A stretch of 62,177 nt of DNA, the filler included, from Jimgerdemannia flammicorona (taxonomy: Eukaryota): NCBI GenBank assembly GCA_003990765.1. It is 3 parts of 3 records of this genome, joined end to end, with 100 filler letters (N's around TTAATTAATTAA, not from the genome) between each part and the next. Parts side by side here need not be neighbours in the genome. Positions count along the whole stretch, not along the records: positions 20,762 to 41,421 come from RBNJ01001625.1; 2 more parts are not named here. One strand, 5' to 3'. Under the pieces are notes generated by a model. It did no database searches. It was not told where the DNA came from and was given only the letters and a program-made list of their open reading frames with translations. Each line of letters begins with the position of its first letter. Within the stretch, counting starts at the first letter, position 1. The position numbers and the translations under genes were made by a program. Below, in pieces: positions 9,867 through 47,721 of the stretch.

Positions 9867-9903
<37 letters not shown>

Positions 9904-12553: not shown

Positions 12554-14871
12554 AGTTGACTAAATATATTTAATAAACATTTCTATTCTGACGGAATACC
12601 TCAATAGTTAGCCAACTTGTACTATCCAACATCCATTGTACCGTCTAGCATCCATCGCACTGTCATTATTATATGGGACTCTCAGCTTTCGAAAAATGTG
12701 TCATGCAGGGAAAGCTGACCATTAAATAGTCATTCGGTGCTAAAGTTTCGATCGTTTCGTCGTAGTATTTTTTCATGTAAATTTGTACATATTCATATGG
12801 ACGACTGTAAATCCTGATGCTGAAAATGTAATTTCGAGGTTTCGTTATGGCGAAATGCACTGCCTTAACATTGAGCACCGTTGCTTTCACGTACAGCCAT
12901 AGTATATATTCCCGTCTTCGACCCGACTTGGCTTACTTTGAAAGACATTCTTCCGCTGGGCCCAACCAATTATTCCCTCCCATAATTTGGTCTGGTATGC
13001 AAATCGTTGATATTTATAATGTCCCATGTGAATATAACTTAACATTATGTATAAATCTATATTCGTGATCATTTCGCATTGGCATTGCCAATGGATCTGT
13101 TTATCCGCTGTTACGTTTTGCAGAGATTATTACACGCCAAAGATAAAGATAATAATAAAGGTTTGGAGATTCCAAGCCCCAGATTTCGGAATTCCGTGAA
13201 TTGAGGGCCTCTCCCTCACATAGTACCAATAGCCTCCTGGCCTTTTCGCGTAGGGTTTTCGGAAGGCCTCTAGAACTACCTCCCGAATTTCGGCGAGGCC
13301 CCCAAAACCCCTGCGGAGACCCTAGAACGTCGTTTTAATTTCCTGATGTCGGCATCTTTATTATTCGAGCTCACCAACAAGCCAGTAGCTCCCACATGCC
13401 CCACATACGGCATGGGTCAAGCATTTTGGGTCCACCAGTTCGCCTGCCTCCCCTGCCATAAGCTTCCTACCCGCTCCAAACTCACACTCACGGCCAGCGA
13501 TTTCGTCTGTAAGGCTTCGACCGTAGATTCTCCAGATGCCTACGTCAATGTCTACGTCATCATGTTCGTGTGGTTGATTTACAATCCCATCACTTGGCCA
13601 ATCAGCATCAAGCTTGATGTTGAAAAAATTGCTCCATCCACTCGCCATCCCCATCCCACGAAAACGCCCGATCTATAAAAACCCACTGTCCTTCAACTCA
13701 TTTTTCGTTGCTAGAGTACTTCTCTCAAAACAATGTTGCTGAAAGGCATAGAAAACTTGTTTGTTGTTACAATGTAACCTTTATAGGTTTATTGTTATGA
13801 ACTTGTAATCTATAATGAACAAATGTAAAATTATAAACCTAAGGGTTTAACAGCTTGTTCGTTGACATTGGGTTTGGGGCTCTGCTCCTCGACAATAGCG
13901 TTACGCAGGTTGGATTTTATATCTAAAACCCTTAGCGTTATTATCGGGCGAATTTATAAAGAAAAAAAACCAAAAGAATAAATTTTTAAATCGGACGCGC
14001 CAAACACGTGTTTAAGCTCCAAGGACCGTTAATGTCAAAGCACATTCGTGATCTTCCACTATTCTCATCGTAGACGGCTCTTCGATCTACATACACTACT
14101 CAGCCTCTTTTACGGCCGGTTTCTGTAATGCTGTGGTGCTGGCTTTCGTCATTCTCAGGTAGTCTTTCTCCGTCGTTAGTAATGCGCTTGTCGGTTGCTA
14201 TCACCATCGACTAGTCGACGTTTGAAATCGCGTTTATCCCAGGCTGATTGTTGCTGTCGTGCAAGAGGTACTCTATCAACACTAGAGAAGATGCGTTGGT
14301 TTGCGAGTCGTGTGGGTTGCAGACCACCGGGGTTGGTGGTGTGAATGTAGATTTGTGGCTCGTGTGAATGTGGGTTTGTGGCTCGCGTGGTTGTGGGTTT
14401 ATGGCTCGCGTGGATACGGAACATAATATAACGAATTCGATATTCACCTCCTGCTCCTCCCTCTTCCTCCTCCCCAAATACACGCGCAGAACGAGGAGAC
14501 TCTCACGTCATATGGTGAAGACGCTTCCGCAGCGCTTATTGCCGATATCGTCATCATCCTGCAGCTCATGAACCTCGAAGTCTACCTTGACCTCCGTATG
14601 CTCAAAGCTTATGGGGCCCATTCAGACGACGTGCTGTATATGCTGCCCGAACCCTGCATGCCGCCCGAACTCTGGTCATGCAGGAGGAATTTATCAGAGG
14701 GTTGAGAGAGGAATGTGAGAGGAAGGTTAGGTTCATTTCTGTTTTTTGTACGATTGGTGGGTAGTCGTGTCTAGGCGGTTATGGTTTCGGAATGTGAACC
14801 TCTATGCTCATAATTGCGAACGTATACAATCTCTTAGATTATCCTTCATTTTCCCCCCATTATTCTATCAG

Positions 14872-16980: not shown

Positions 16981-18823
16981 TCATTCCTCCTTCTTTTTCA
17001 CCAATGCCTCTATTGACACCACCCACTTCTCATCAAACAGAACCTTCTCCTTACTACGTTTTTCCACCAACTTCAGTTCTATCAGCTGCTCAATCACTCC
17101 TTTCACCCACTCCTCACTCCACCCAATGTCCCCCCGTTGTTTCGCGGCCTTCACCACCTGTTGTACAACGAGTGCCATCGCCGTCGGCAGCTCCATGTAC
17201 TCCGCCAGGTCGATCACGACGGGCACAATGTCCTCGGCGGGGGATGCCGGCTGTGGGAGAGAGCAGCGCAGGACGTCGGGGTCGAGTTCCGAAAGGAGTA
17301 TTTTCAGACTCTTGCAGGAAATCTGGTAGGTTTGGGCGAGGAATTCGACGTCCGAGATGTAGGGTTGGGGTGCCGAGATGGAGGGTTGGGGTGCCGAGAT
17401 GGAGGGTTGGGGTGCCGAGATGGAGGGTTGGGGTGCCGAGATGGAGGGTTGGGTTACCGAGATGGAGGGTTGGGGTACCGAGATGGAGGGTTGGGGTGCC
17501 GAGATGGAGGGTTGGGATGCCGAGATGGAGGGTTGGGGTGCCGAGATGGAGGGTTGGGATGCCGAGATGGAGGGTTGGGGTGCCGAGTCGCCCGAGGGTA
17601 AGGAGGGGGTGGATTTCGTAGGGAGGAGGCGGCCTTCGGCGACAAATTTGCGGAGGACGACGAGGATGCATTGAGTGAGATCAGGTTCGACCATGCTCTT
17701 TTGGAAGCGGGGGTAATTGGCGCGGAGGACTTGGAGGAGGGTTTGGATTGTTTTGGGCTGGAATTTCGCGTGTAGTTGGTGGAGCAGAAAATGCAATTAA
17801 ACGTGAGGGAATAATCTCCGAGTGAAAAAAGTGCAAAACAAACTATGGATGCTGAGTGCCCAAAGGACTTGCGTAAACAAGAAGAATCACATGACTTACT
17901 TGACGTCTAAACCTTTTCACCAAGAACTCCCACACGTCATTCATCTCCGTCACGTTGGTCATCGGAAACCTAATATTATATGGCACCCACTTGGTGTTCT
18001 CCCTCCCATGTAAGATATTAATAAAAATCTGCAGCCCCATAAAGGCATCCCGACTCGAATACTCCACGACCTCATCCGTCAACTCCCTCGCATCAAAATT
18101 CCACTTCAAAAGCTTCTTCCTTTCCTTTACGTCGACGGGCTTGATCAACACTCCCTCCTCCCCGCCCCAAATCTGGCTCATCTCCGCCAACGAGGACACA
18201 GGAAAGCCCTTGGCCCTAGCGAGCATCTCAATATCGATGGCGCCGCGGACGCGCACGCCGTATGAGGTCTCGAGATGCACGGCGTCGTCGGTGGCCTTGC
18301 AGCCGACCTTGAGGATAATCGAGGAGTTGAGGAGGGTGGCGAGGATTGGGGGGAAGAGCGTTCGGTCTCCATCCGTGATGCGGAAGATCTGGATCATAAA
18401 ACAGGCGTCCGGGGTGGCCAGCTGAATAAGCGAAATCATACCGGGGCTTTTCTTGCGGTAGACGGTCGTCTCGGTGTCGAAACCGAGAGCGATGGGGCGG
18501 GAGGCGCGGAGGATGTCGATGGCTCTGGAAGCTGTGATTGGATGGAACGACTGCGAGTATTGAATGGATGCGGCTGGGCATGAGCATTGCATACTATCAA
18601 GAGATCATGACTGACCTTCTGCAATGGTGAAAGGAATGTACACTGGCCTCTCACACCACGGCGCCCGTCTAATGCCTGCCGCTTCGAGCTGCTGAACCAG
18701 GAGAGACGGTGGCGGCCGGTTGTTTGTAGTTGATGTGGTTGCATATCGAGCAATTCTGCCGAGTGTACCAAACGGGAATTCATTACGAACAAAGTTGGAT
18801 CGTAATGTGATTATCCCTAGCAT
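16981..18823 (-). CDS. DEDDy 3'-5' exonuclease (WRN/EXD2-like domain); complement(join(16981..17757,17900..18531,18616..18823)), 538 aa
   Basis: ExoI LGFDTE, LIQLAT, ILKVG..DD and ExoIII YSSRDA. GT-AG introns 18532-18615 and 17758-17899 keep the frame open. Confidence 0.85.
17361..17587 (-). repeat. Coding 21-bp minisatellite, about 11 copies, encoding (APQPSIS)n
   Basis: GGGGTGCCGAGATGGAGGGTT tandem units within exon 3 of the exonuclease gene. Confidence 0.95.
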
Positions 18824-20661: not shown

Positions 20662-20761
20662 NNNNNNNNNNNNNNNNNNNNNNNNNNNNNNNNNNNNNNN
20701 NNNNNTTAATTAATTAANNNNNNNNNNNNNNNNNNNNNNNNNNNNNNNNNNNNNNNNNNNN
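20662..20761. other. Assembly gap/linker (N-run with TTAATTAATTAA)
   Basis: An identical 100-nt spacer recurs at 41422-41521. Confidence 0.97.
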
Positions 20762-26688: not shown

Positions 26689-28240
26689 TATAACAGTGAC
26701 TCCAGAATGATGACATCAGTATAGGAGACAGTCTTTTCTTACAAGCTACCATATCAGAGCACAAGAAGATTATACAATATATGAGATAAGTAATGATGAC
26801 CAACTGTAAGTCATTGTGACCACAGTACAAGTATCTTGAGGAATATTAAAGAAGGATCAAGGAACTGCAGTAGCAGCAACCAATAAGACCCACCAATTCC
26901 AAAATAGCTCAAAGATTTACCACAAACAAAATACCTGCTGCCTACCAAACCTAAAGGTCAAGAAACTACCAAGGCATCTCAGTTGAAGAAAGGATATTCC
27001 AAGACATCAGAAGAGCCATGAGGACTCACTCAAGAAGGGCTCCTAGTATCAATCTGAGTACTGGTGACCCTTATCACTATATCCTCTACTGTTGTAAAAT
27101 GGAAACCAGGATCACCATTGCTACTGAATGCCTCTAAATATAGCAGAAGTATGAAATAGGAAACCTCCTCTGCCAGGAGTTTCCACAGGCCAGCCCTCAA
27201 GAGCTACAAAATGCCACTCCCATGGATATATGTAAGGCAAGGATGGCTAAGAAGATCCATCAGATCTTCAGACATGTATCATGGTCAATTCCCAACTTAG
27301 AGTATGTTAGAATCTCAGACTTCAGAGACCTGTTATCTTGCCATATCAATACACTAGAAGCCAGAGTAGCCACAGAAGCCCAGTCCACTATCACCCTCAA
27401 TAGTAATGAAGTAGAAGACTTCTGATATCCCATCCTTCAGAACAAAGACCAATTCCTACAAGGATTGATCTCAGTATTCCAAGGCCCAAGCATCTAGGTT
27501 AGACCTCTCCAAGATCCCACATTTGTTCCCTATTTTGTAGAAAAGAACCTCATAGACTGGAGAGCTCCAGACCTCCTTCCTGCCACCAAACATGATGACA
27601 TCATTGCTGATGACATCATCCCATATAACATATATGAGATATATAATGAAGCATGTAAAGTATATGAAATACACAACCTATGTGATGATGATGAATTTGC
27701 AGACCTCATCTCCTTCAAAGACATCCTGACCTCTGATGATGAAGCCTCTATAGTCTTGAAAATTCTGCTCTAAGTCCCTTGATAATACTGAATAATACCA
27801 GTACCAATATTTTGATATAATACTGAATAATGCCAGCACTGGTATTTGGATGTGACACTGAATTATACTAGCATCTTGAACCTATACAACCATTAGTGCC
27901 AATCCTGGAACTTAGCAGTTTTTCCTGTCCTGGCATTTTATTTTAGTTATTGAATTTATATTTAGCTTTATATCTTAGCAACCATTGAATTATATTTTGT
28001 ATAAATACTCCTCTTATTTCCTCTGAAATAAAGTCAGTTCCTCTCAGTGCAATATATATACTTCCTTGTAAGCAATCTAAGAGATAACAAGACAGTTTAA
28101 AGATAAGAAGTTTGAGGACTATAAGACCTTAGAAAGGCACTCTAATAAAAACTTGCTTATAACAAACTTGAGTTAGTCTAAGAGATATACCTTGAAGAGA
28201 ATCTGGCATATTTGAAGAACTCAGCAACTACTATATGACA
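26689..28240 (+). repeat. 5' LTR of element C (1552 bp)
   Basis: Starts TATAACAGTGAC (decayed TGTAACGG) and ends TGACA. Homologous to 34413-34832, 54023-55582 and 47831-48330. About 38-bp repeats at 27780-27880; TATA/AATAAA at 27998-28032. Confidence 0.9.
26931..27773 (+). pseudogene. LTR U3-encoded accessory protein (281 codons, no frameshift, a few substitution stops)
   Basis: One continuous frame from ATA (ATG in the other copies) CCT GCT to CTG CTC TAA. Includes ORF 27222..27425 with KKIHQIFRH and an acidic tail. Confidence 0.75.
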
Positions 28241-28242
28241 AC

Positions 28243-28260
28243 TTAGTATCCATTGGCTGG
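28243..28260 (+). promoter_or_regulatory. Putative primer-binding site (tRNA not assignable)
   Basis: Directly after the LTR; reads TTGGTGCCCATTGGCTGG in the better preserved copy D (54003-54020, minus). Confidence 0.55.
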
Positions 28261-30459
28261 TGATTCAAGATGAATCCCTCACTTTCAAGCTGAAAAATGA
28301 ACAACCCCCACAACAACTACTCTGACTACAAGAGTTACCCCTGCAAGAATTCAAGATAAGATGAAAATGCATCTCTTCATATTCTATAGATATACTACTG
28401 AAGAGTCAATCCTGACCTTCATTAAAGACTTTGAACAATTTGCCACCATACGAGCCCTTGGTATGGATGCACAATTGGCCCTTCTACCAGTCAGCCTCAG
28501 AGGACCTGTCAGAGACAAGTTCAATGCAGCCACTATTGCTGATAATGGTGCAGCTAAACTTACCAACATGAAGGCCTTCCTCAGAACAATATACTATACT
28601 GAAGAGATCAAGCAAGCTCTCAAGGATCAACTCAATACTATCTACCAAGGACTTAGTGAAGATCCCAACTCATTCTATACCTGAATCTGCCACCAGATTG
28701 TCTTGGCTGGCTATGATAATGCCCTCAAGGAATAAATAGCAAATTCAACCTTCCTTAAAGGAGTTCACTCTGAAATTGCCCTAGCAATCTAGTCTACCCC
28801 AGCTGCACTGACCCTTGATCAGAAAGTGGTCTTTGTATAGAGATATTGAACTATCAGACACTGTGCCAAACATTTAATAGAGAAAATAACTGATATTAAG
28901 ATAGAGCCATCAAAGCTAACTAGTATTATACTGACTATAGTTGTAAACAGACAACTAATCCCACCCACCCCCAAGGTAGCCAAAGCTGACCCAGTGAAAG
29001 ATCTTGCCAAGCAGTTTGCCGAGATGACTGTACCCTTGGTGATATTGTTAGAGAAGTCTGAAGCACCAACAGGAGACCAGTGCAAAGATTTGCAGCTGCT
29101 ACAGAAGAATACAATATTATATGCTTTAGATGTGGAGAAGAAGACCACTATATAAAGAATTGCATAACTGAAACAAGACACAAAGCCCAATCAAGCAATA
29201 CTAGCAGAACCAGAGAACAAACTAATGCAGTAGTCATCGAGGAGATTGGTGATACTGATGATGAAGAAAACTATGAGAAGCTTAAATTCTACCCTGCTAC
29301 TGAAGGTACCAGAACTCAGTCCAAGCTCTATGATAAGAAGAGCAACAGCAAGCCAGTTGGAAGACCAAAGAAGACCCCAGCTGTCACTATTCAAAGCAAG
29401 ACTCAATCTGAGGAGATTGATCAAGACATAGAGTTAGATAAAGCTGTCTGTCAAATTATCAAAGGCATTACTCCAGTCTCAGGAGAAAGCAAAAGCAAGA
29501 AGAAACAGAAGCTGCACAAGACCAAGATCCACCAGTATGATATTTACAAGAACCTTAAGGAATAGAAGGTCAATGTTACTTTTGGACAACTAGCTGAAGT
29601 TTCTGCCTTCAGACAACAGTTGAGAGTAGGACTTGCAACTACCACCAAGAATCAAGAGTACAAGATTATAGAAGCTCACAATATACAGGAAGAATCTGAA
29701 AACTCAGGTGAAGAATCTGAAGACCAGTGCAAGACATCAGCCTATACCCTATGTCAGATCGAAGACTGTATCTTTAATACCATCATTGATACCAGTGCTG
29801 AAGGATGCCTCATGAGCAAGAAGGCAATTGACAGCCTAGGTTGGGATATTGAAGAGTCCACTAAGATGGTCTATGTCATAGCAGATAATATATGAGCTAC
29901 CCTCCTTGGTAAAATCGGAGAAGTCTCCATCAAGATAGGAGGAGCTACTATCCCAGTAGACACGATTGTTATAAGTACCACTAATTATGACATCCTTATT
30001 AGCAACCAATGGCTTCACAAGACCAAGGCTATCATTGACATCAATGCTCAGAAGATATAGATCAATTATAGAGGAAGAAAGGTATGAGTCTCTATCAATG
30101 TCTACAAAGGAGTCCTACCAGATATGGAGAAAGGAGATGAAGAGGATACAGAAGTCTTCATGCACTCAGTGAATAAGAACAAGAACAAGACACTCAAGCT
30201 CACAGATGAGCAGTGGTACAACAAGATCATCAATAGCTATGCCCCTCAAGGAAGATGTCCCCATGGTACTCGAATGTACTGCTCTGAACACCTGAATGAC
30301 TGCTGGTCCTATATCAGTGAAGTCAGGAAAATCTGCCAACAGAAACATAAGCAAGAAGCTGCTGAAGTAAAAAGGAAAGCTGAAGAAGATGACCAGCCCC
30401 CAGAACTTCAGGCTGACAGTGATAATGAGGAGGAACAAGAATCAGACATCACCCTCAAG

Positions 30460-30864
30460 GTCAAGAAGTTTCACCCTGAAGCCAAGATCCCAGAATACAA
30501 GACTGAAGGAGTTATAGGAATGGACCTTGCCAGCATTCAAGATGCTATCCTTAAACCACAGACCACTACCCTACTTGGCACTGGAATTGGAGTCAAGTTG
30601 CCAGAAAACTATACCAGAATTATCAAGACCAGGAGCAGTCTGGCCAAAAGTGAAATCTCAGTTGAAGGAGGGGTAATTGACCCTGATTACACTGGTGAGA
30701 TCTTCCTCATAGTCAGGAATCACAACTCCACCACTCCATTTGAAGTCAAGAAGCATGACAGGATTGGCCAGATGCTGATTTACGAAATCAAGAAATCCAA
30801 GATCACTGAAGCCATCAAACTCATCAAGACCAAGAGAGGAGAACAAGGCTTTGGATCTACTGGA
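30460..30864 (+). CDS. Trimeric dUTPase domain within the Gypsy polyprotein (frame still open)
   Basis: All five motifs present: GMDL, RSSLAK, GVIDPDYTGEI, DRIGQML, RGEQGFGSTG. Confidence 0.92.
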
Positions 30865-31379
30865 AGAGGAGTCTATACCACTACCAAGATTACTGAACTT
30901 GAATACAAGAAAGACAAGGACCAGAACAAGCACACATACACTATTGGAGAAAACCTTCTCCTGGAAGAACAACTTCTCAAGATCCTGCACCAGAATGAAG
31001 AAGTACTTACAATCAAGAACCCAAGTACTACTATGAAGTTGACACTGGTGATACCAAGCCCATCTATCAGAAAGCCAGACCTATACCACCTACCTACAGA
31101 GAATGGCTGTGAGCAGAACTCAAGGAAATGGAAGAAGCCAGAATTATCAAGCAAGCTATTAGTCCCTGGGTTTCACTCATTGTCCTTGCTCCAAAGAAAG
31201 GAAGCAAGCCTGGAGAGTTTGTGTCAAGACTCTGCATTGACTACAGAAAGCTCAATGCCATCACCAAGAAGGATAGGCAGCCCTTGCCAAATATTCAAGA
31301 AATCCTTACCACCCTCAGAAGTGAAGCCAAATACTACACTACCTTGGATCTATTCTCAGGCTTTCATCAGATTGGTCTC

Positions 31380-31859
31380 TTTTTTTTTTTTTTTTTTTTT
31401 TTTATAGTCCCTTGGACTCCATCTTTATTACCAGTCTATGAATAAGTATACAATATCACTGCCCACTAACCGATCCCCATCTGGGGGCCCCACCCCACCT
31501 CTTCACAAATAAAGACCACCCTCTCACCAACAACTCCAACCCTCCCACCACTCTGACCACAGATTTTCACCACCAGGCGGCGCCTCCGACTCCCCTGCAG
31601 CCCCCAACCAAGCCACCAGCCTGTCAAGGTATCCTCCATAAGGAACTGCCACCTTGCCAACCGGCTCCCCAAGCTCTGTCGCTTCTCCTCCTCAAATACA
31701 AACAGCCAGTGGCCGGCCAGCCCAACCCAAATAGCCAATGCCCATCCTAGCATAATCCACTCTTCCCCTACCCCTCCTATCAATCGATCCCTCAGGTCCT
31801 CCCACCTCCCCCTTACATCATCACCCCTATGCCTTACCCCCAATCAGTCCCCAATGGCC
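31380..31859 (-). mobile_element. 5'-truncated LINE insertion with poly(A) tail inside the RT of element C
   Basis: Poly(T) from 31380. Minus-strand end AATAAAGATGGAGTCCAAGGGACTAT(A)n. TSD TTCAT(C/T)AGATTGGTCTC at 31363-31379 and 31860-31876. Confidence 0.92.
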
Positions 31860-32852
31860 TTCATTAGATTGGTCTCACTCAAGATGCCAGTGAGAAATCA
31901 GTCTTTATCATATCTGATATCATCTATATTTATCTGCAAATGCCATTTGGAATGTGCAATATCCCAACAAACTTCCAGTGAATGATGAATAGAGTCTTCA
32001 GCAATGAGATTGGAAAATGGCTCTTTGTCTATGTTGATGATGTGATCATCTTCAGCAATACTATATAGAAACATATCAATCACATACAGCTAGTCCTCAA
32101 GAAGCTCAAGGAGTATGGCCTTTACATCAAGCCCAAGAAATGCTAGTTAGCAGCTCAAGAAATCACCTACCTAGGACACCTCATCAATCAGATCAGAATT
32201 CACACAGACCCCATGAAGATTGAAGCTATTGCAGCCTACCCGAGACTCAGAATGACTACAGAAGACCATACCTTCTTTGGACTGGCCAGCTACTACAGAA
32301 GATTCATCAAAGGATATTCCAACATTACAGCACCTATCTATGAGCTACTGAAGAAGAAAACCAAATTCAAATGGACCAAGGAGTACCAAGAAACCTTCAA
32401 TGAACTCAAGACCAGGTTGACCCAAGTACCTATCCTCAGAAGATCAGATTGGAACCTAGAATTCATCCTGCAGACAGATGCAAGTGGCATAGGACTTGGA
32501 GCAGTCCTAGCTCAGAAGAAATATAGATATAAATATATCATCTCCTATGCAAGCTGAGGTACCTGCAGAGCAGAACAGAACTATGAGTCATGCAAGCTTG
32601 AATGCTTAGCAGTAGTTTGGACAGTAGACAAGTTCCACTACTACCTAGATGGAAAATAATTCACCATTCAAACAGACCATTCTACTCTTGCCTAGCTATT
32701 CCACACTCTGAACCCCAAAGGAATATATACCAGATGGATCTACAGACTGCAAGAGTATGACTGTACTATTAAGTACTACTCAGAAAGAACCAACACCAAT
32801 ACTGATGCACTTTCAAGGATACCCTGAAATACCCCCATCAAGACTATTCAAC

Positions 32853-34050
32853 ATGAATAAGGAGCTACACTATGGATTAATTAGCTACCTTGGACAGCAG
32901 AAGATGCCCAACCACCTTGAACTCTGGACAATCACTATCATCAACTGGACTTGAAAACAGTTTGAACTAGATAATACTATACTCAGAAAAGGAGAAAAGC
33001 TAGTAATATCTGAATACAAGAAGTATCAAGTAATGAAGGAAGTATATGAGCAAGGATATCTAGGAGGAACTAATATATATGATAAAGTAAAAAGAACCAT
33101 GTGGTGGTCCAAGATAGAAGAAGACCTGTACCAATTTGTCAAAGAGTGTGACAAGTGCCAAAAACAGAAATAAGATCAGCAAGACCAGACACCCAGATCA
33201 TTAAGAATAGAGCCTATCCCCTTCTACCACATCACAATGGATATCATTGGGTCACTACCTGTAATACTATCAGGAAACTGCTATATTATAGTTATTGTAG
33301 ACCTCTTCACCAAATGGATAGAGGCAGGAGTATTATAAGAAGTCAATGCCCTCTCTATAGCTGACTTCCTATACTGAGAAATCATCTGCCACTACAAGAC
33401 ACTAAAACAAATCACAACAGACCACAGCACCAAATTTATCAATAGATTCCACAAGATAATGTATCAGAAATATAAGATCTAGCACATCAAGACCACTATA
33501 TACCACTCTCAAGAAAATGGACAGATAGAAAGAACCAACAAGACCCTCTAGAACATCCTGGTGAAGATCTCAGAGATATATGAGAGTTGGGATAATTACC
33601 TCCCAACTGCCCTCTCTGTCCTATGAGACATATGGTCACAGAGCATACACTTTACCCCAAAAGAACTGCTCTTTGGAGAAGAAGATTCTGATGGAACCTC
33701 AGCTACAAATCTAGACCTAACTTGGAGATAGGTTGATGCAGAAATCCAGAGACTACACCAAATCAGAAAGAAGGCTGAAGATTACATTATCAAGTTACAA
33801 GTACTGATAAGAAAGAATACAGAACAGAATCACAAGACCCTAGAACCCATCTGAATCAGAGAAAAGGTCCTACTATATTGAAATATGATAGAAGCCTCAT
33901 AGTCATGAAAACTAGAGCCCAAATAGGAAGAACTCTTCTATATACAAGATATCAAGGAAACTACCTTCTGGCTTAGAAAAATCTCAGAGACCATACTGCC
34001 TACTATGGTATATAGGAACAGACTCAAGAGGTACTACAAACCTATATAAG
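32853..34050 (+). pseudogene. Integrase ORF of element C (own ATG, +1 frame relative to RT-RH)
   Basis: MNKELHYGLISYL..., WWSK..CDKCQ, VDLFTKWIEA, TDHS, YHSQENGQIERTN, NRLKRY. Confidence 0.85.
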
Positions 34051-34412
34051 AGAAGCAAATATAATGACTGCCTGTGAGGTTCTAGTCTACAAATCATAAC
34101 AGCATGTCCTGTGACCAGCAGGCTATCTGTCTAGACCATTCTCTAAGGAATACAGCACCAGCAACTACTTATTCATGAAACTTTCAAAGCTAGAGGAGTT
34201 TGAACTATCAACTGATTGGTCAAGATCAGAATCAGATCCTTGCTCTAAATGAAGGGAGTGACCCTTCACCATCATACCAAAATACAAAGAGAAGATGTTA
34301 GCTCATAAATACCACTTTTCAACCCCTTGCCAGAGATTATGGGATCAGCAAATTTTTCAAAACTGGATCAATGAATAAGGATGCTCAAGAAGATCCTTAT
34401 TTAGGAGGAAGA

Positions 34413-34832
34413 TATAATAGTGACCCCAGAATGATGACATCAATATAGGAGATAGTCTTTCCTTGCAAGCCACCATATCAGAGCACAAGAATATTATATG
34501 GCATACAAGATGAGCAATAATGACCAACTGTGAGTCATTGTGACCACAGTACAAGAATCTTGAGGAATATAAAAGAAGAATCAAGAAACTGCAGTAGCAG
34601 CAACCAACAAGACCCACCAATCCCAAAATAGCTTAAAGACTTACTACAAACAAAATGCCTGCTGCTCACCAAACCTCAAGGTCAAGAAACCACTAAGGTA
34701 TCTCAGTCAAAGAAAGGATGTTCTAAGATATCAGAAGAGCCATAAGGACCCACTCAAGAAGGACTCCTAGTATCAACCTGGATACTGGTGACCTTTATCA
34801 CTATATTCTCTACTACTGTGAAATAGAAACCA
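34413..34832 (+). repeat. Truncated 3' LTR of element C
   Basis: Follows PPT AGGAGGAAGA; matches 26689-27108 and stops abruptly at the LINE. Confidence 0.88.
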
Positions 34833-37800
34833 TAGAGACAATTGTTACCTTTCTCTGATACAATTCACATTACACCAACTTCAAGCAATGGTTTTTTTAC
34901 ATAACTCAGAGGAAAGGTATTATTATAATGTCATCAAGCAAGAGTTCTGACAGATATGCTGGGTCAGGTGGACCTGGGGCTTTTGGCTGACAGTATGTAG
35001 AGAGAGGTTATGGCCTGGGGATGGGGACCTTTAGAGGGTCGAAGGGTGGCAGGGGCTCTGGAGGTGGACCAGTGTCTGGTAGCCATGGAGAGAGGTCTAG
35101 CCCCCCAAGTTTTGCAGATAAGGTGAAGGAGAGTGGGTGGTCAGCTGGGTCTAGGACTGGTGCTGCTGTAGGGAAGGGCAAGGTGAGCCTAGGGAGGGGG
35201 AGAGGTACTCAGGAGGGGGAGGTGAACATAGGTGCTGGAGGTGCTGTGGCTGAGGATGGGACTGCTAATAGCAGTGTGATGGGCAATCAGGAAAAAAAAA
35301 GAGATGTAATAGCTGATGGAGGTGTGGGGCAGGGGTTTCCAATGCAGAAGAGAGACCTGACTGATGGTGTAATGGGGCTGGTGGTGGCACTATTACTCAG
35401 GAAGTCAATCTTGGTGTTTGTAGTAACACTGTGCTTCCGAGGCTTGGCAGTGATGGTAAGGATGGTCCTGGGGCTAGTCTTGAAGCAGGTGGCTGAAGCT
35501 GCCTCAGTGAAGTTCCTGAAGGGCCTAGAGGGAGTTGAGGTGGGCTTTGAGGAGGCAGGCCCACTAGAAGAGGCACTGAAGACTAGAGTGGTAGTTGGTG
35601 AGGTGGTGGTCCCCATGATGCACTGCCTGAGGTGGGACCCCAGGGTAGTGCAGCTGCTGGTGAAGGGGGTGCCTACTGTGATGAAGGAGGAGACTAGGAG
35701 GAGGGTGGAGGAGGTGATGGCAGAGTATAGCAATATAGTGGATATTAGTTTCCAGGTATGAGAGGGGATCTCCATTAGGACTGATGATGTAGAGATATTG
35801 ATTAGACTGGCAGGAAGGGAGGCCACAGAGAAGGCAAGCAACTGGCCCTCAGTGTTGATGTGGGGGGCTTTTGTCTGTAAGGTGTCAAGGGTGAGAGGGA
35901 ATAAAGAGGAGGAAGAGGACTTGTTGGAGGTGCTGGAAGAGTTGAGTGGTGCTGTTGAGAGGAGGGCAAAGATCTGGAAATTATATGAAGAGTTGATGCA
36001 TCTGGAGATTATTGATGGGAAGAGGATTAGAACTGACAAGGGGCAGTGGGAGCAGGCCCAGGGGTGTAAGTAGCAGAGAGAGCTATTGGCAAGTATGAGT
36101 AGAGGGGCTAAGAAGAAGGTAGATAGAGCTGGGGAGGCTGGGGGCATTGAAGCCAGTGTCTGGACTAATAAAGGAGGAGGGGAGGTGGAGGCAAACAAGG
36201 AAGGGGCTGAGAAGGTGCCAAACAAGGACCCCTATGCAGATGGTACATTCGAAGTCTGGGAGAAGAAGTTGGATGCCATCCCCCCCCCCTCTTATCAGGA
36301 GGGACTTGGTGGCAAAGAGAGGGGCAGCAGAAGATATGCTGATGAAGGGGGCTCAGCAAGTACACTTTAGAGTTCCTGATGTGGTGAAAGGAGGACAGAT
36401 GGTGGCAGTTGGTGAGGATGAGCTGGTGGATGTCTCAGAGAAGGAGTGGGATAAGACTGCCAGTGTAAGAGCTGATACCACAATGTTGGATGCAGGGCAG
36501 CCAGAGACTCTGGGAGGGAAGGAGGTGGAGAACCTGCTGTAGATGAGCAAGGTGATGGATAACCTTGCAGCTGAGGAGTTGGGAGAAGTGGACCTGTGTG
36601 TGATGTCTGAGGAGCATTGGGCAAGGATTCTGCATGAAGATGGAGTGGTGGAGGCACTGAAGATAGAGATTCTTGCGATTTTCCTAGAGGAGGAGGGATA
36701 TGAGGTTGATGAGATAAGAAAGGTGGGGCTGGCAGTTATTGCTGGTGAGAGGACTGCCTACTGTTGGGCAGAGTGTCATAGTTTGCAGCTCTAGCAGAAG
36801 GCCTGTCTGGAGTACCATAAGGACTTTGAGGAGAGAGAAGATGGGGCAATGGTAGAACTTCTGAGAGGGTTGGTGGCACAGGAAGCTGGAGAGAAGGAAC
36901 TAGCTACTGAGCATGACTTGGACTTGATGCAGGAAGAGTTGAATGTAGATTTGTAGAGGATGGGATTGATATATAACATCATTTCTTATGAACAGTACAA
37001 CTAACATTTTCTCTTTGAATGTAAATGGGTTAAGGGGTTCTGGGCAGCATAAGAACATTTTTACTTGACTCAAGGAATTGGAGGCTGATCTTTTTTTACT
37101 ACAGGATGTATGGTGTGAGAATGAGGACAATTGGATGGAGTGGACTAGAGAATGGAGTGGAGCTACTGCTTGGTTTGGCAAGGTGGCAATTCTGGTGCAA
37201 AAGGGTAGTGAAAACCTGGGGGGAATCAGGAGCTGGGGTGATTGATTTGTCTGGGGTGATTGGCATCAACCTGGGTGGGAATCGGTGAGAGTTGGCTCCT
37301 GCTACTGCCCTGCAGTTAGGAGTGAGAGGATTGCATGGATTAAGGAGCTGCTGGAGGGGGGTATTCTCTTGGAGGAAGGAGTTGATGTTCTGGATGGTGA
37401 TTTCAATATAGTTTGGGATTTGTACCTGGATAGAACTGATGGTGGGAGGAATGTGGATGGGAGGAGTGGTGGCCTGGATGCATGGGAGGAGATAGAGCAT
37501 TTCAGCTCCTTAGGGGATATAGACAGAATATGGTGGGGCAACACCAGGGTCTACATACATTAGGTGAATGAGTTAGGTATGAGGATAGACTGGATACTTA
37601 CAGCTGAATGTTGGGGTGCTGATGTTTGGAAGACTTTGGAGGTGGAGTGGTGCCCTTGGATCACTGGGGACTGTTGGGGCAGGGGCAGTTTGGGGGGAGT
37701 GGAGATGGACCCAGACATTGGCACCTTAACTCCTCCCTGCTGGCCAAGAAGAGGTTATGGAACTCATGGGTGGAGGACATATGGGCAAAGGTTCATATCT

Positions 37801-40800
37801 GGAGGTATGAGGGTTTGTCTGTAGGTATCTAGTAGATGAGATTAAAGGAGACTGCAAGGGTTTATTGAGGAGAAGCTGATAGGGAGGCTGGGTGACAGAG
37901 GAGGAAGTGCATATGGTGTGCTTCAAACAGACTGGTGAGATTGTAGATAGAATGAGCTGTTCTGCTTTCTTCTATTGAGGTGGAAGATTGGAGGTTAGAG
38001 AGGGCAAAATTGGAGGTAGTAGAGTTGCAATGAGTGTTGAGAGAGGAGGAAGAGATTCATATGTGAGGAATGGCTGTCAGGTTATAGTGGCAGGAGCTTG
38101 AGGAGGGAGAGCAGACTACTAGGTACTTGTCTAGGCTACTCAAAGCCAGGAGGGTGTAATATTGGTGAGATAGGGTCTTGGATGCCGAAGGGGATATGGT
38201 GCATAGCACACAGCAGATCTTGGGGGTTTTGAAGGAGAGATGGTGGGGTCTGTGAAGTGAGGAAGAAGGGAGTGTGGAGGAAGAGGCAATTGGAGATACA
38301 CTGGAGGAGTGGGAGCTGCCACAGGTAGAGAGACTGGGTGACTTGATCTTGCCAGTCCAAGAGGAGAAGATCCAGGGAGTCCTTGCAGCAACTAAGCTTG
38401 GGACAGCACCAGGGGAGGATGGGCTACCTTGGGACTTCTGGAAGAAGATGGCAAAGGTCATAGGAGTGTTAGGAGAGATGGCTGCCCTCTGTGACCATGT
38501 TCTTCTGAATGGCAAGTGGGTCAGTGAGCAAGACTTGGGGCTAGTGGCCTTACTGTACAATGATAAGGGCAGGTAAGAGGACTGGAAGAACTGGAGGCCC
38601 ATAATGCTTCTGAATATAGACCGGAAGATAGTGACTAAGGTGATTGTTGTAAGGCTACAGAAGATTGCTCAACAGGTGATAGGAGAGGAGCAGTGGAGCT
38701 TTGTAGGAGGTAGACTTATCAGAGATGGGACTGCCTGGGTGCATGGCATCATAGAAGGGGCCCGGGCTTGTGGACTGAATGGTAGATTGATCTTTCTGGA
38801 CCAGGAGAAGACCTATGACCATGTTTGGCAGGTATGGTTGGGCAAGGTTTTGGATAGAATTGGTGTTTCTTTGTGGTTTCAGACTTCTATGTTAAATTTG
38901 TTGGAGGGAAGTAGAGCAGCATTGATGTATAATGGCTACAGGGGTTTGGTGTTTCCCTTGGAGAGAGGAGTTCCTCAAGGAGACCTGCTGTCTTCTATCC
39001 TTTATGCTCTTTCACTGGAACCTTTGATGGATAGGATCTGTTGGAAGGTAGCTGGGCTCTCTATGTATGGTGTGGTGTGGAAGGTAGGGGCATTTACAGA
39101 TGATATGGTAGTTGGACTTGGATCAGTTGTAGATGTCAAAGCACTTAAGGAGACAGTGGAATGGTATGAGGCTAGGGTGAAACTCAATTGGCATAAATGT
39201 GAGATAATGGTGTTGGGGAATAGACTAGTGAGAGGGGATGTCATTGGAACAATTGTCCCCACAGGAGAGGTGGTGTGGTATCTTGGGATCTTTCTTTCTG
39301 TGTATGGGTCAGTCCTTTCAAGGGTGTGGTGAGAGAGGAGGGTGGCCATTTAGGGAGAGGCTCTGAGAGGTTGGGGGGGTCATCATATCTCTCTGGCAGG
39401 GCAGGTGTCAATCCTGAATATATACTGGTTTCCCAAGCTGTGATATGTGGCATATCACTTAGACTTTCCAGCCTGGGTGGTGAAAAGGCTGATGAAACTG
39501 GCTAGAGAGTGGATTTGGGCAGGAAGAAGATCTCAGATCAGTTGGGATACCCTTGTGGTATCAGTGATTAGAGGAGGCCTAGATCTTGTAGACTTTTCTA
39601 AGCATCTATACTGTGTGCAAGCATGGTGGTTGAAAAGGACAGTTGAATTACAGGGAGGAGGTTGGGTACCACTGATGCAGAAGGTGTGGGAGATGAGATT
39701 CTCCTCTCAAGGTTCCTCAGGAGACTTGCTCTCTCTGGTGGGTCTGAATGGAAGCCAGCAGATGCAGTATAAGGGCTTCTGGTGGGAAGTGATAGATGGA
39801 GCATATCAGATTGGCCTACACTAGTATAGCAATGAGGGGGAGGTGGTGTGGGGTCCTGCTATATGGTAGTGGGACTGACTGCTTCTAGGGGGGAGTCTGC
39901 TGGCAGAATTTGACATTGGTGATAGAGTGGAGTATTAGTAGGGTCTTGGCCAGAATCTTTGATTGAGTAGTTAGCAGATAGTGAGGATTGGTGAGGAGTG
40001 GGACTGGGCAGGAATCTGGTCCTGGAGTGCTGAGGTGTGGCAGTGGCTTCCTCCCAAGTTCTGGGTGGTTTGGTAGTGAATGCTGAGGAGGAATGTTATG
40101 TTAAATTTCTATGCAATCTGGTGGAGGGGGGCCAACTGGATTGTGAGAAGTGTTATAACATCAGGCAAGCTGGGGGATTTGTGCAGATGCCAGAACATTG
40201 GCTGGGGGAGTGTGAGGTTTTGGGGGACTTTTGGATAGCTATAGGGAAATGGCTGAGTGTAGAGAGGAGGCCAGATAGAGAGAGAGGCCATTGGGAGGAT
40301 TTAAGATCTTGACTAGTGAGAGGTGTTGGCAATGGGTGGCTTACTGTAGGATGGGTTGTAGTGGTGTAGGTAGGGCTGGCTGGGCTGGTCATTGGTTTTT
40401 TGTTTTTGAGGAAGGGCAACAGATAGGGTTGCAGGAGAAGTTATTGAGATAGTGTAATAGAACGAACGAATGAGTGAACAGAAGGGATGTGACGAGACGA
40501 ACGATCATGTGACCTGGCAATAATGTTATCATACGATCGAGCGCGGCATATGAATAACGAATGATGCAAAATGATGTGGAAAATGATATCCAGCTTATCC
40601 CCAATAATCAGCACCGCAGCAACAGTTGCCACAGTGATCATTGCCTAGTAATTAAGGTCCTGATCATAAAGATATTCTTTACCAAAAACCACCTAACAAA
40701 GGTCATGATCACAAACCTCATTATAGTTACCAAATTAGTCACTCATATTTAGTCAGAAATCATGGACCAACTTGTATAAATACCCCCCAGTTTTCATCTG

Positions 40801-41421
40801 AAATAAAGCAGTTTTAGTTCAGTCCTTGATACAAGAATCAAGTTTCCCCCACACACACACATTCCCCTAAGTCTTAGTAATGATATCTAAGTGACTCTAG
40901 TGTTTCTGACTAAACTCCAGAAGTCTAACTAACTTCTGCCAGAACTGAGACCAGTATATAAATCCCCAAAGACTTAAGTAAACCCATTGAACCTGAATTC
41001 CAAGATGAATTCAGTCTGTACACAGCAAAGAACAAGACCCTCAAAATAGGGCACAAGAGAAAGACCTTCGAAACAGAAGGCAAACCAGAAAAAGACCTTT
41101 GAAAGAGAAGACACTGCTGCTACACTTACTTATAAGTGAGTGTTTCCTCAAACTGAAGGCTTCTTAGTATACATTGTGTACTAAGTCCCTAAGTAATAGT
41201 CCACTTCCCTAATTATCCAAAGGATAAGAGAGGAGTAGAAGTAAGAGTTATTACAGGTAGGAGGAGTTGTTGGGGGATCTACTGACTGAGTGGTGGGTTG
41301 GTTGGAGTCTCCAGGGTGGGTGACATTGCTGTCTGGTGGAGGAGATTTGTGGGTGAAGTAGTGGATAGGTGGAGATGGTGTTAGACAAAGTGGTCTTTCA
41401 TCAGGAGGGGGTGAGGGAGGG
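34833..41421 (+). mobile_element. L1/Tx1-like LINE, near full length, decayed; 3' end lost in the gap
   Basis: ORF1 about 35021-36980. ORF2 from ATG 36988 (MNSTTNIFSLNVNGL, APE), then PGEDGLP, WRPIMLLNIDRK, LDQEKTYD, GVPQGD, FTDD, and C-terminal CEKC..H..C. Confidence 0.92.
40453..41255 (+). mobile_element. 803-bp solo LTR inserted in the LINE 3' region
   Basis: Perfect 7-bp inverted termini TGTAATA...TATTACA. Flanks GATAG/GGTAG (5-bp TSD, one mismatch). TGTATAAATA..AATAAA at 40773-40807. LINE-like sequence resumes after it. Confidence 0.85.
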
Positions 41422-41521
41422 NNNNNNNNNNNNNNNNNNNNNNNNNNNNNNNNNNNNNNNNNNNNTTAATTAATTAANNNNNNNNNNNNNNNNNNNNNNN
41501 NNNNNNNNNNNNNNNNNNNNN
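41422..41521. other. Assembly gap/linker
   Basis: N-run with TTAATTAATTAA. Confidence 0.97.
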
Positions 41522-44210
41522 GCAACCCCCAGTGATCAGACTATGGACACCATATGACTCCCAGCACTGTCCAGACATCTGCTCCCCAACACTCTGCTGT
41601 TAGAACCCAGTCAATCCTAGAGCCCAGTCCTGCTGCCCAATGGGTATATACCTGCCAATCAGCCTAAAAATGTCTCCCTGAGTCCACTAAAGAACACAAC
41701 CTTTCCATCTCCAACCAGTCCGCCAACCCACCACTTTCACCTCGCATGCCTCTTCCTCTATCAGTTCTGTCCAACTCCTTATCCCATACCATGTTGAAGT
41801 CCCCCCCCCATACAGTCCAACCCAACTTCTCCCAATAAACCAGTCTCTTTCAATCTGTGAATCCAATCCACTCTCTCCCCTCTCTCAGCCGGGCAGTAAC
41901 AAGACCCAACCATCAGCGAGCCCCATCCAGGCCTCTTCCATACTCCCCACACCACCTGCGATCCCCAATGTCCAATGTCCCCAATGTCCCCCATCTCTTT
42001 CTGAATAAGAATACCCACTTTCCTCCTCCAAACTGCTGCACCCCCCCATTCCTTAGTCCAATCCTGTAAATCCACATCTGCATCATACCGAACATCCTGT
42101 AACAAGAAGAGGTCTGCATCCAGACCCCGAAGCTAACCAAAGATGTACTTTCTCCTAGCCACCCCCCATAACCCATTAACATTTAATGAGAATATCCTAG
42201 TTGTACTGTTCATATTGAGTAGACATTGTAGAAGAGACCTCAACCTATAATTCTATGCTCATCTCATCCCTCGCCAAGTCCAAGAGCCGCTCAGCTTCCA
42301 ATTCACCCTCTGCAATATCCTGAGCATCCAGTGCCCCCAAAATTTCCTAACACTCCACCCTGTCCACCTCCTCCATATCCACCCTGTAATCCAAGCAGAC
42401 TGCGTGCCACTTCTCTAGTCCCTTCCTCGAGTTCCACAAGACAAGTGCCCTGTCACTTGCAATCCTTCTAAGCTCCTCCTCTCGCTGATCATCAACCTGA
42501 TACTCAACAGACTCCAGGAGGACAGCCAGGATCTCATTTCTCATCTTCCTCGGCACCTCTTCCTCACGCCGAATCTCCTCCCAATGCCTCTCCTCCATCA
42601 CCCTGAAGTCCTCACCCCCCAGCTCTTCAGCCGCTACCCCTTCCAGGGTCTTCCACATTCACTTCTCCTCATCTACCGCCTCTGCTGCCCCCTGAGCAAT
42701 TTGTCCCCCATCCACCTTGGGGTCCACCAGTGCACTCCTCCTCACTGACTCATCCCACTCCTCATCTGGCACATCCATCAGCTCCTCCTTGCCTCCTGCC
42801 CCATTCAGAACACTATACTGAGGGCGCCCACCTTTGCCCATTTCAGCATCCACCTCCAAGTTATCCTCCCTCCCCTCCCCAACTCCAATCTGAGCCCTGC
42901 CCTGGGCCATCTCTCCCCCTTCAGCCCAGACACTCTCCTGCAACCCTGCAGCCCCCTCTCCAGAGCTTCCACCAGCCCTACCCTCGCCCAACTTCGCCAA
43001 CAACTCCTTCTGAATTCTCCTCCCCTGCATCTTCTCCCAGGCCCCCTTCTCTATCCAAACCCTCTTCCCATCCACCTCCCCCACCACCGTCCTGGCCTCA
43101 AACTCCTTCCAGGCTAATCTCCTCCTCACAACTGCCCCTTCCAGGTCCTCCAGAGCCTCCAACAGGTCCTCCTCCTCCTCCTGAGTCCCCTTCACCCTAG
43201 TGACCTTACACTCCACCAGTCCCCACCTCAGCATTGCTGGCCAGTCCCTCAACTTCCCCATATTCTCCTTTCCAGCCAGTCTCACCCTGACATCGACATC
43301 TCCAGTTCTAAGCTCTGTGCCCTCCCAGACCTTGAACCCAACATCCACAATCTCGCCATACTCCTTGATCGCCTTTACAACCAACTCTCTGGTCCTTTCC
43401 TTCGACACTGTAGAAAGGTCTAACACTGTCAACTACACCACCCAGGGGTCCCAGTGCATACACCGGGCCATAGAGACCACAACCCCACCAACCATCACCC
43501 CCTTCTCCATAGCTACCAACAAGGCATCTTCCTCCTCAAACCCCACCTCAACCCCTTCCTTTCCCCTCAAGAACTTCACCGACACTGCTCCCTTAGCCTC
43601 CTGCACCACCAGCCCCAAAATCATCCTCGCTGTCACTGCCAAGCCCCAGAAGCACATCATGACTGTGAATTCGGACCTCGACTTCTTGAGTAACGGGGCT
43701 GACACCATGCCCGTCATCCCATCCACCAGGTCCCCGGGCCTCATGCCCACTCCAAGTCCCAAATTGCCAACCACCGTCACATCTGGATTTTTTGCCAGAT
43801 CCCCAGTCACAGCCCCATCAACAGTCACATCTCCAGCCCCTACTCCGGCCCCTTCCCTACCACCAGAAGTACCCTGGGGTGCACCTCCCTGACCCCCAGC
43901 AGTAGCCATCATGCCTTCCCCAGGCCCAACCAACTATCCAGCCCAGAAGCCATCTTTCCCATCCTGACCTTATCAGCAAAGGTCGACCTCTCCCCTCCTC
44001 TCTGCCTCAGACCTCCCCTTCCTCTGCCACCGGGGCCTCGGCTAGCCATCGAGGCCCCTGGCATCTCCAAACCATCTCCCCTCCTCCCCACCTGCTGCCA
44101 GCCAAAGGCGCCATCCCTCCCCTGGCCAGTACGCTCACCAGATCGATCATTGCCATCCATGTTGTTAGTCGTCGGACACCGAAAATGTTGTAAAAAGTGT
44201 TGTCTGAGTC
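41522..44210 (-). mobile_element. 5' half of a related L1/Tx1-like LINE (ORF1 and APE start), less decayed
   Basis: ORFs 43433..43933, 42659..43432 and 42347..42658 are homologous to ORF1 at 35021-36790. ORF2 ATG at 42213 (MNSTTRIFSLNVNG). Confidence 0.9.
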
Positions 44211-44229
44211 TTGTGTCACCTGAATGTTA

Positions 44230-47620: not shown

Positions 47621-47721
47621 GTTATATTCTTTGTTTGTCCCCCTTATACACATGTCTTCCATTTGCTTTGACACTGGCTTTGGGTTTGCTCCCTTGGCTC
47701 CTGCTGGGCCTTCTTTCTCCT

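Follow-up and report, generated by a model that had tools for sequence, protein, structure and literature searches.

Can the long terminal repeat (LTR) of a fungal retrotransposon carry a protein gene of its own? LTRs are treated as noncoding control regions, which annotation pipelines mask, and, to our knowledge, protein genes inside an LTR are textbook cases only for a few complex vertebrate retroviruses. The question is raised by a stretch of 62,177 nucleotides (filler included) from Jimgerdemannia flammicorona (GenBank assembly GCA_003990765.1), analyzed here in full and termed the window, the content of which is a nest of retroelements (GC content 41%, CpG observed/expected ratio 0.36). 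A reading made from the sequence alone (the sequence-only reading) had placed a conserved open reading frame (ORF) inside the LTRs of divergent Gypsy elements in this stretch. Our analyses identify an LTR-resident gene family that is real and previously undescribed, and that is seen in the window only as pseudogenes; taken as a whole, the evidence is probably best explained by a genuine accessory protein gene in a dUTPase-bearing Ty3/Gypsy LTR lineage.

An open reading frame inside long terminal repeats

A hidden Markov model (HMM) of the family, built from a 21-sequence alignment (A2) and run on the six-frame translation of the whole window, matched exactly five copies, and these are the five, two of them partial, that the sequence-only reading had located. 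The copies, together with the elements and LTRs that hold them, are listed here (i-E, independent E-value; PPT, polypurine tract):

26689 to 34832, plus strand: element C (Gypsy), from its 5' LTR through its truncated 3' LTR
26689 to 28252 (end uncertain, 28240-28252), plus strand: 5' LTR of element C, its start homologous to the sequence after the PPT at 34413
26931-27773, plus strand: LTR ORF copy C, 280 codons (HMM match 26934-27767, i-E 3.6e-105)
34413 to 34832, plus strand: 3' LTR of element C, truncated, immediately behind the PPT
34655-34831, plus strand: N-terminal ORF piece in the 3' LTR of element C, first ~59 codons (HMM match)
55583 to 47831, minus strand: element D (Gypsy), from its 5' LTR through its truncated 3' LTR
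54011 to 55583, minus strand: 5' LTR of element D
54508-55329, minus strand: LTR ORF copy D, 273 codons (HMM match 55329-54514, i-E 2.8e-99)
47831 to 48331, minus strand: 3' LTR of element D, truncated, following the PPT
48068-47831, minus strand: N-terminal ORF piece within the 3' LTR of element D, first ~80 codons (HMM match 48068-47811)
1966 to 4362, minus strand: solo LTR, 2.4 kb, of a third family that is younger (CpG observed/expected 0.42), inserted into the pol region of a further relative, element A
3207-4154, minus strand: LTR ORF copy of the solo LTR, 315 codons (HMM match 4154-3270, i-E 1.9e-110)

Elements C and D, which are 84-86% identical, both encode a gag zinc knuckle, dUTPase, reverse transcriptase (RT), RNase H, and integrase in Gypsy order, and the succession of RT, RNase H, and integrase, together with the gag zinc knuckle, places them in Ty3/Gypsy (Metaviridae). 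In element C (plus strand), the CCHC region lies at 29062-29565, the dUTPase within an ORF at 30088-31407, the RT from 31113, and the RNase H from 32147; in element D (minus strand), the corresponding positions are 51266-50799 for the RT, 50360-50001 for the RNase H, and 49633-49217 for the integrase.

The residence of the ORF in the LTR is established by its recurrence in elements C and D and by the flanks of the solo family. In C and D, the first 420-500 bp of the LTR, including the first 59-80 codons of the ORF, recur directly after the PPT at the 3' ends, where both 3' LTRs then break off, after 420-500 bp and at different points, and continue into unrelated DNA. The end of the 5' LTR of C (CpG observed/expected 0.0) was set by a CA followed by a TGG-starting site resembling a primer-binding site (PBS), which is conserved with D; the LTR length of 1.55 kb is thus given by the PPT and LTR start, the TATA/AATAAA module described below, and the PBS-like site, rather than by a full LTR pair.

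For the solo family, contigs from two soil-metagenome DNA runs (X1 and X2; one study, small shares of the runs) were aligned on positions 1700-4700. Their summed depth reached up to 386 within 1966-4362 and only 3-26 outside it. At 4361, they showed one common continuation (five contigs of X1 and one of X2), namely a purine-rich tract that abuts the LTR start on the element strand; at 1964-1973, a second common continuation (two contigs of X1 and one of X2) consists of a 3-nt spacer and a TGG-starting stretch, which, read by hand, is the complement of a tRNA T-stem, acceptor stem, discriminator base, and CCA. In one soil copy, the last eight bases of the LTR are an inverted repeat of its first eight. 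The shared PPT and PBS flanks and the limits of the depth therefore identify the 2.4-kb unit as the LTR of a full-length, high-copy element. The ORF lies wholly within the LTR, in the manner of the sag gene of mouse mammary tumor virus (MMTV), as the sequence-only reading had claimed.

The three ORF-bearing LTR types follow a common plan, composed of the LTR start, a leader region of ~210-240 nt, the ORF, repeats, TATAAATA, AATAAA, a further 200-750 nt, and a terminal CA. The elements downstream of the ORF are as follows:

27782 to 27873, plus strand: 35-bp tandem repeat, 2.6 units, immediately after the stop of copy C
TATAAATA at 28000-28007 and AATAAA at 28027-28032, plus strand: downstream module of C, the presumed genomic promoter and poly(A) module
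TATAAATA at 2750-2743 and AATAAA at 2724-2719, minus strand: downstream module of the solo LTR

The sequence-only reading had described short tandem repeats and a TATA/AATAAA box behind the ORF in both LTR types. The second of these holds in both, and at equal spacing, since the TATA-to-AATAAA distance is 25-27 nt in the C, solo, and element A LTRs; the first holds in full for C, with its 35-bp unit, but only short repeats were found in the solo LTR.

Element A provides an LTR with this module and no detectable ORF:

450-1961 and 4513-5911, on to ~6900: element A, a third relative (Gypsy, very AT-rich), its pol region split by the 2.4-kb insert at 1966-4362
6419 to 6900, plus strand: 3' LTR of element A, with the same PPT, LTR start, and TATA-AATAAA module as the ORF-bearing LTRs

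The element A LTR has only ~270 bp of U3 before the TATA box, and its module is 80% identical to that of the solo LTR over 54 nt. The family HMM found no homolog of the ORF in it, in a region so decayed (GC 23%) that an old deletion is possible. Since element A keeps the module without the ORF, the ORF behaves as an optional block in U3. A weak HMM match at 6073-6297 (i-E 1.1) was dismissed, as it lies before the start of the element A LTR.

Conservation of the protein and decay of the window copies

The DNA of the C/D LTRs gave no match to that of the solo LTR in a self-BLAST of the window at E 1e-20, yet their proteins align (copy C versus the solo ORF, BLASTP E 2e-14 with 25% identity across 176 aa), which indicates conservation at the protein level; copy D, in turn, matched an intact metagenome relative, P0001, with a BLASTP E of 3e-13. 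The homology between the two LTR ORF types, originally seen by eye, is thus real, and the motifs listed with it (LN..T.D..HF, YEIG, HQIFRH, and an acidic tail) are conserved columns in alignment A2.

A profile search of 1.84 billion protein representatives extended the family by 11 relatives (6 at E <= 1e-10 and 4 at E <= 1e-30), all of which come from short metagenome contigs and carry no NCBI or UniRef record or informative name; no host-gene homolog was found among these representatives. With their cluster mates, the relatives form about seven lineages of 21-56% pairwise identity, with intact members of 247, 259, 342, 325/331, 246, 205, and 286 aa. In JGI and ENA metagenome assemblies, the solo ORF matches proteins that are 324-331 aa long and 73-77% identical to it, among them the intact P0001 (325 aa, 77%), and P0012, an intact protein of 247 aa, shares 74% identity with copy C and has sense codons where C has stops. 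A scan of metagenome contigs with a further relative, P0014, returned one locus, L001, which is a 1535-bp soil contig of CpG-rich DNA with an intact frame of 291 codons; the same scan with the family alignment found nothing, as did a scan of viral contigs for the family. On L001, a 33-nt motif is repeated at 170-202 and 1481-1513 (82% identity), upstream and downstream of the ORF, which could represent a regulatory site flanking the gene or a contig that crosses between LTR units.

The pattern of change between copies suggests that the family was under purifying selection while its copies were active, and this is supported by intact ORFs in about seven lineages, by in-frame indels, and by dN below dS between lineages. 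Between C and D, all five indels inside the ORF are multiples of 3 (3, 3, 3, 21, and 3), versus two of seven in the rest of the LTR (10, 1, 30, 1, 4, 9, and 1), and each of the full copies (C, D, and solo) was matched by the HMM in one frame, without a frameshift. In the soil copies of the solo family, 10 of 10 listed indels fall outside the ORF, which occupies 40% of the LTR. The Nei-Gojobori (NG86) dN/dS ratio of C versus D is 0.32-0.33, the lowest of the six frames, the other five giving 0.50, 0.51, 0.51, 1.09, and 1.75. Between families, the ratio is 0.17-0.23 for C or D versus L001, so that C, D, and L001 together span 0.17-0.33, and 0.40 for solo versus L001, with dS saturated in the comparisons with L001. 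Selection on the protein, as the sequence-only reading had proposed it, is thereby upheld at the level of the family.

Several observations weigh against a functional gene, the first being that all three full copies in the window are dead and must be regarded as pseudogenes. The "frame-intact ORF" of the sequence-only reading stands insofar as each copy keeps a single frame, but the frame is not open. Copy C has 5 in-frame stops and an ATA in the ATG position (standard code); copy D has 11 in-frame stops and retains its ATG; the solo copy starts with ATG and has one internal stop (TAA, codon 176, 3627-3629). Copy C has no truly open stretch longer than 67 aa, and the solo LTR none longer than 205 aa; no ATG-started sense-strand ORF of at least 60 aa was listed inside copy D. 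In addition, a TAG at codon 71 (W in relatives) is common to the C 5', D 5', and D 3' copies, which suggests either that the ancestor of C and D was broken and yet still transposed or that parallel hits occurred. The dN/dS signal between C and D is modest, given that control frames reach 0.5, and the spread of C/D differences over the codon positions (54/30/58) lacks the classic excess at third positions. Of the best-supported differences that separate the solo copy from the soil copies (24 in all), 16 are nonsynonymous and 8 synonymous, with codon positions at 9/8/7; this flat distribution looks neutral and reads as decay of the window's own copy. The intact metagenome ORFs are a biased sample, in that only open frames get called, and the window holds no complete LTR pair for C or D. 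Element A, finally, suggests that the LTR gene is dispensable in at least some relatives.

The nature of the stops suggests how the copies were lost. Of the 16 stops of C and D, 15 fall where intact relatives have Q, W, or R, the codons for which are one or two C-to-T or G-to-A changes from a stop, and 1 falls where they have S. This fits the complete loss of CpG in both LTRs (observed/expected 0.0 and 0.02), and nearly all of the stops are of the kind expected in a CpG-depleted, methylated repeat. In the solo copy, the internal TAA is a sense codon in every covering soil contig, and the terminal TAA (3207-3209) is likewise a sense codon in soil copies; further, G or C in the soil copies is replaced by A or T in the window at 72 places in X1, versus 35 in the opposite direction.

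These data also bear on the view that the frame has no protein function, and reflects either a constraint on U3 DNA or RNA (enhancers, packaging, or priming) or a captured host gene carried as a passenger. The broken state of every window copy, the stop that three C/D copies have in common, and the lack of any match to a known domain would all agree with such a view. We nevertheless consider it improbable, because (i) the proteins align where the LTR DNA does not, (ii) the indels keep the frame, (iii) frames of 205-342 codons are open in about seven lineages of 21-56% identity, and (iv) a confident AlphaFold core, described below, was obtained from only 21-22 sequences, and the lack of any host-gene homolog in the profile search counts against a captured host gene. 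A genuine protein gene, since decayed in this window, accounts better for these features.

GC content differs widely among the repeats of the window: it is 23-24% in element A (450-1961 and 4513-6900; CpG observed/expected 0), 35-41% in C and D, and 46% in the young solo LTR. This GC-to-AT decay, graded by copy age, looks like the outcome of a process similar to repeat-induced point mutation or of methylation-driven C-to-T change. Many of the C/D stops are CAA-to-TAA changes, i.e., outside a CpG context.

Putative promoters and transcripts, and the predicted protein

A second set of TATA sequences lies upstream of the ORF:

26844 to 26851, plus strand: upstream TATA position of the C 5' LTR, mutated to TATTAAAG
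34568-34575, plus strand: upstream TATAAAAG in the C 3' LTR
4209 to 4216, minus strand: TATA-like box TATTTAAG of the solo LTR, 62 nt upstream of the ORF ATG

The upstream TATAAAAG stands 87 nt before the ATG in three of the four C/D copies (C 3', D 5', and D 3'), and the same TATAAAAG stands 80 nt before the ATG in the GC-rich L001, with a leader of 17-20 nt preceding the ATG that is nearly identical between C/D and L001. From the positions of TATA and AATAAA alone, we infer that the ORF is placed in U3, upstream of the genomic promoter, and not in R. Each LTR would then contain two promoters, of which the upstream one, 60-90 nt before the ATG, would drive the ORF, and any LTR, whether 5', 3', or solo, could yield a monocistronic mRNA of 1.2-1.5 kb that ends at its own poly(A) signal. 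The TATA box of the genomic promoter, 25-27 nt before AATAAA, would cause the poly(A) signal to be read only in the 3' LTR; some retroviruses have a very short R of this kind, with a poly(A) signal used only in the 3' LTR.

The same landmarks can be arranged differently, with the ORF in R. The upstream TATA box would then be the sole promoter, the downstream TATA/AATAAA block would be only a 3'-end signal, and the genomic RNA would have the ORF as its first cistron and contain it at both ends. Conservation of the upstream TATA box and the leader across lineages would suit this arrangement, as would the downstream block, which could be the UAUAUA-like element and AAUAAA that fungal poly(A) sites employ. 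However, R would measure ~1.15 kb, and a 5' poly(A) signal 1.1 kb from the cap would need to be ignored; moreover, the fixed spacing of 25-27 nt between TATA and AATAAA in three LTR types fits a transcription start at or just after AATAAA, and element A keeps the module without the ORF. Placement of the ORF in R is therefore unlikely, in our view. Slightly less likely still is expression of the ORF from its 3' LTR copy through a spliced subgenomic RNA, in the style of retroviral accessory genes, which would make the upstream TATA box incidental. The ORF does come after pol in the genomic RNA, at its 3' end, like nef, sag, and bel, and an AG is found ~25 nt before the ATG in the C/D copies; against this, the intron would have to span ~6 kb, a great length by fungal standards, the position of the AG is not shared by L001, and a TATA box at the same distance in this GC-rich contig is unlikely to occur by chance. 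We thus retain the model of two promoters flanking an ORF in U3, while counting against the gene as a whole that its transcript model, its U3 placement, and its translation are all things we infer. A search of sequencing runs for the ORF listed only the two soil-metagenome DNA runs of one study and no RNA run.

Because the ORF is located within the LTR, the gene is duplicated with it and left behind in solo LTRs. The proposal that solo LTRs disperse a complete gene holds to the extent that the TATA-like box, the ORF, and AATAAA are all present in the solo LTR, but the copies in the window are nonfunctional.

Two AlphaFold models (P0012 and P0014; alignments of 21-22 sequences) agree in helix order and predict one long helix and, after it, five or six shorter helices (pLDDT mostly 75-94), then a small hairpin and a tail with pLDDT below 50. 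The protein is thus predicted to comprise an all-helical core of ~140 residues, of unrecognized fold, and an acidic, disordered tail of 58-149 residues. In 6 of 8 members examined, the tail has a net charge of -16 to -26 and a D+E content of 19-31%; in the other 2, no motif marking where the tail begins was found. In several lineages, the C-terminus consists of an acidic run plus a short hydrophobic motif (alignment A2), so that the models and sequences together suggest a disordered acidic C-terminal region with hydrophobic residues, as in activators of the VP16 or Tas type.

Searches for a known relative of the protein were negative. Pfam assigned no family to single ORFs; when all 21 members were scanned at E <= 1, the only matches were to six unrelated families, none of them retroviral and each hit by just 1-2 members. 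Searching PDB sequences with the family profile yielded 0 matches at E <= 10. With Foldseek, neither model matched anything in the PDB at E <= 0.001, nor did model 1, the only one compared, in the viral BFVD at E <= 0.001, and the best score in the ESM Atlas, 0.88 on unnamed clusters, is below the level of evidence. The VIA wide structure search gave a best Z of only 4.2-4.4. In it, residues 47-134 of model 1 matched SopB with a Z of 4.2 (80 aa, rmsd 4.6), which is below the meaningful level for helical models, and other ParB-like proteins more weakly still (VirB, 3.6; P1 ParB, 3.1; KorB, 2.8 and 2.7; Spo0J, 2.7); these matches to ParB/SopB/VirB/KorB DNA-binding domains, the sole theme to recur, were not reproduced with model 2, the list of which was filled by the low-confidence C-terminal hairpin. 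Two further candidates were rejected, namely (i) a copy of gag, ruled out by hhalign of the family profile versus the gag pieces of C (probabilities of 0.8 and 0.07), and (ii) membership in a known retroviral accessory-protein family, for which Pfam and the PDB sequence profile gave no match.

Our leading guess for the role of the protein, and a tentative one, is that of a trans-acting activator of the element's own LTR, one of the two roles (the other being a silencing suppressor) that the sequence-only reading had suggested; it is favored solely because the architecture combines a folded core with an acidic, hydrophobic tail. In such a scheme, DNA or a host factor would provide the docking site for the helical core, and recruitment of the transcription machinery would fall to the acidic tail, as it does in VP16 or the Tas protein of foamy viruses. 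The core has a net charge of 0 to -8, i.e., neutral to acidic, which is unlike most DNA-binding domains and speaks against this role. A real protein with another role is a comparably tentative alternative, either as a blocker of silencing whose acidic tail acts on basic chromatin or RNA interference proteins, or as a factor for RNA export or packaging resembling Rev or CERV. This alternative gains from the acidity of the whole protein rather than of the tail alone, from the absence of a confirmed DNA-binding fold, and from a host that heavily mutates, and presumably methylates, its repeats (CpG observed/expected 0.0-0.07 in old copies); a Gypsy-type precedent with an RNA-export protein is described, in the accessible part of the source, for Cer1 CERV (PMC10309623). 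Nothing specific speaks against it; no RNA-binding or known suppressor motif was found. The activator proposal in its full form, in which the LTR is a complete gene (promoter, ORF, and poly(A) signal) coding for a new element-specific transcription activator, is possible but rather doubtful. If true, the factor would be supplied in trans by every LTR of the 5', 3', and solo kinds, and solo LTRs, usually seen as dead, would keep feeding the activity of the family or could be recruited by the host.

Neighboring features and known systems

The window contains several further features outside the LTR gene. The 13-kb segment at 34833-47830, between the inverted truncated 3' LTRs of C and D, is G+C-rich and has long overlapping frames on both strands; it also has a separate reverse transcriptase at 38577-39329 (RVT_1, E 3e-20) and an internal inverted match of 35354-35965 versus 43732-43121 (67%). 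The C and D 3' LTRs are cut within ~70 bp of the same point. Positions 20662-20761 and 41422-41521 show an identical pattern of 44 N, 12 bases, and 44 N, and represent filler joints between parts. At 7723-12554 lies a tandem array of protein-kinase gene copies, the repeat units of which are 77-83% identical; the best named relatives of the kinase ORF are from Endogone sp. and Jimgerdemannia flammicorona (34-42% identity), followed by Diversispora epigaea (28%). By itself, this one gene family indicates that the host is most likely a soil fungus of the Mucoromycota, in agreement with the groups (Mucoromycota/Glomeromycota) named in the sequence-only reading. An ORF at 17843-18604 (minus strand) with a DNA_pol_A_exo1 3'-5' exonuclease domain (E 2.4e-15) sits in a region of long frames overlapping on both strands (14.7-20.3 kb); retroelements of bdelloids are reported with DEDDy exonuclease ORFs in the part of PMC5408684 available to us.

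The dUTPase domain of element C (30088-31407, plus strand) is located in the pol ORF immediately 5' of the RT, and a dUTPase-RT protein, P0028, from a JGI metagenome contig is 86% identical to it. A dUTPase between protease and RT is reported only in bdelloid and basidiomycete elements, according to the accessible text of PMC5408684, and a Mucoromycota lineage with a dUTPase near the RT would be a small addition to this record.

A conserved, selected gene in fungal Gypsy LTRs would mean that this layout has evolved outside retroviruses too and that solo LTRs could spread and retain a whole gene. Genomes of mycorrhiza-related Mucoromycota would then hide, in what is classed as repeats, an orphan protein family of unrecognized fold, which would be a concrete candidate for a means of countering or managing host silencing, or of boosting the element's transcription. 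The full-text literature, with subscription-only papers outside the scope of the search, yielded no LTR-resident gene in a nonretroviral element, but only retroviral cases and extra ORFs in internal regions. The latter include ORF0 of rice Retrosat2/RIRE (PMC3485330) and ORF3 of bdelloid Juno/Vesta (PMC5408684), which, as far as the accessible parts of these sources describe them, lie in the internal region and not in the LTR, and CERV of Caenorhabditis elegans Cer1 (PMC10309623), described in the part at hand as an accessory protein of a Gypsy-type element that acts in RNA export. On the same partial basis, all three resemble the LTR ORF as lineage-specific accessory ORFs added to gag-pol, of unknown or regulatory function; Retrosat2 ORF0 and bdelloid ORF3, however, stand before gag or after pol, so that solo LTRs do not carry them. 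Retrosat2 ORF0 and "DUF1" of einkorn Quinta had been considered as precedents and were rejected, both being internal ORFs in the portions of the sources available. None of these extra ORFs has a sequence relationship to the LTR ORF, the 11 profile relatives of which bear no informative name.

Among retroviral genes, the sag gene of MMTV, which encodes a superantigen of ~300 codons, lies wholly in the LTR, in U3, and precedes the genomic promoter. The LTR ORF resembles it in being a whole gene inside a long LTR, and hence in both LTRs, and in a poly(A) placement that would give a very short R. The host differs (a vertebrate retrovirus versus a fungal Gypsy element), and the LTR ORF protein has no sequence or fold similarity to it in Pfam, PDB, or BFVD searches; furthermore, Sag is a membrane glycoprotein, whereas the LTR ORF protein is helical and acidic and has no hydrophobic anchor in the models. 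VP16 of herpes simplex virus joins a structured core, which by itself has little affinity for DNA, to an acidic, disordered C-terminal activation domain rich in bulky hydrophobic residues; its likeness to the LTR ORF protein is one of architecture and composition only, with no fold match. In foamy viruses, tas/bel1 and bet are 3' accessory genes that extend into U3 and are driven by a second, internal promoter, and Tas, which has an acidic C-terminal activation domain, transactivates the promoters of its own element. The foamy-virus internal promoter is in env and not in the LTR, the genes overlap U3 only partly, and there is no homology; yet, in its combination of a second promoter with an acidic activator, foamy-virus tas would be the closest counterpart, by analogy, to the mechanism proposed here for the LTR ORF.

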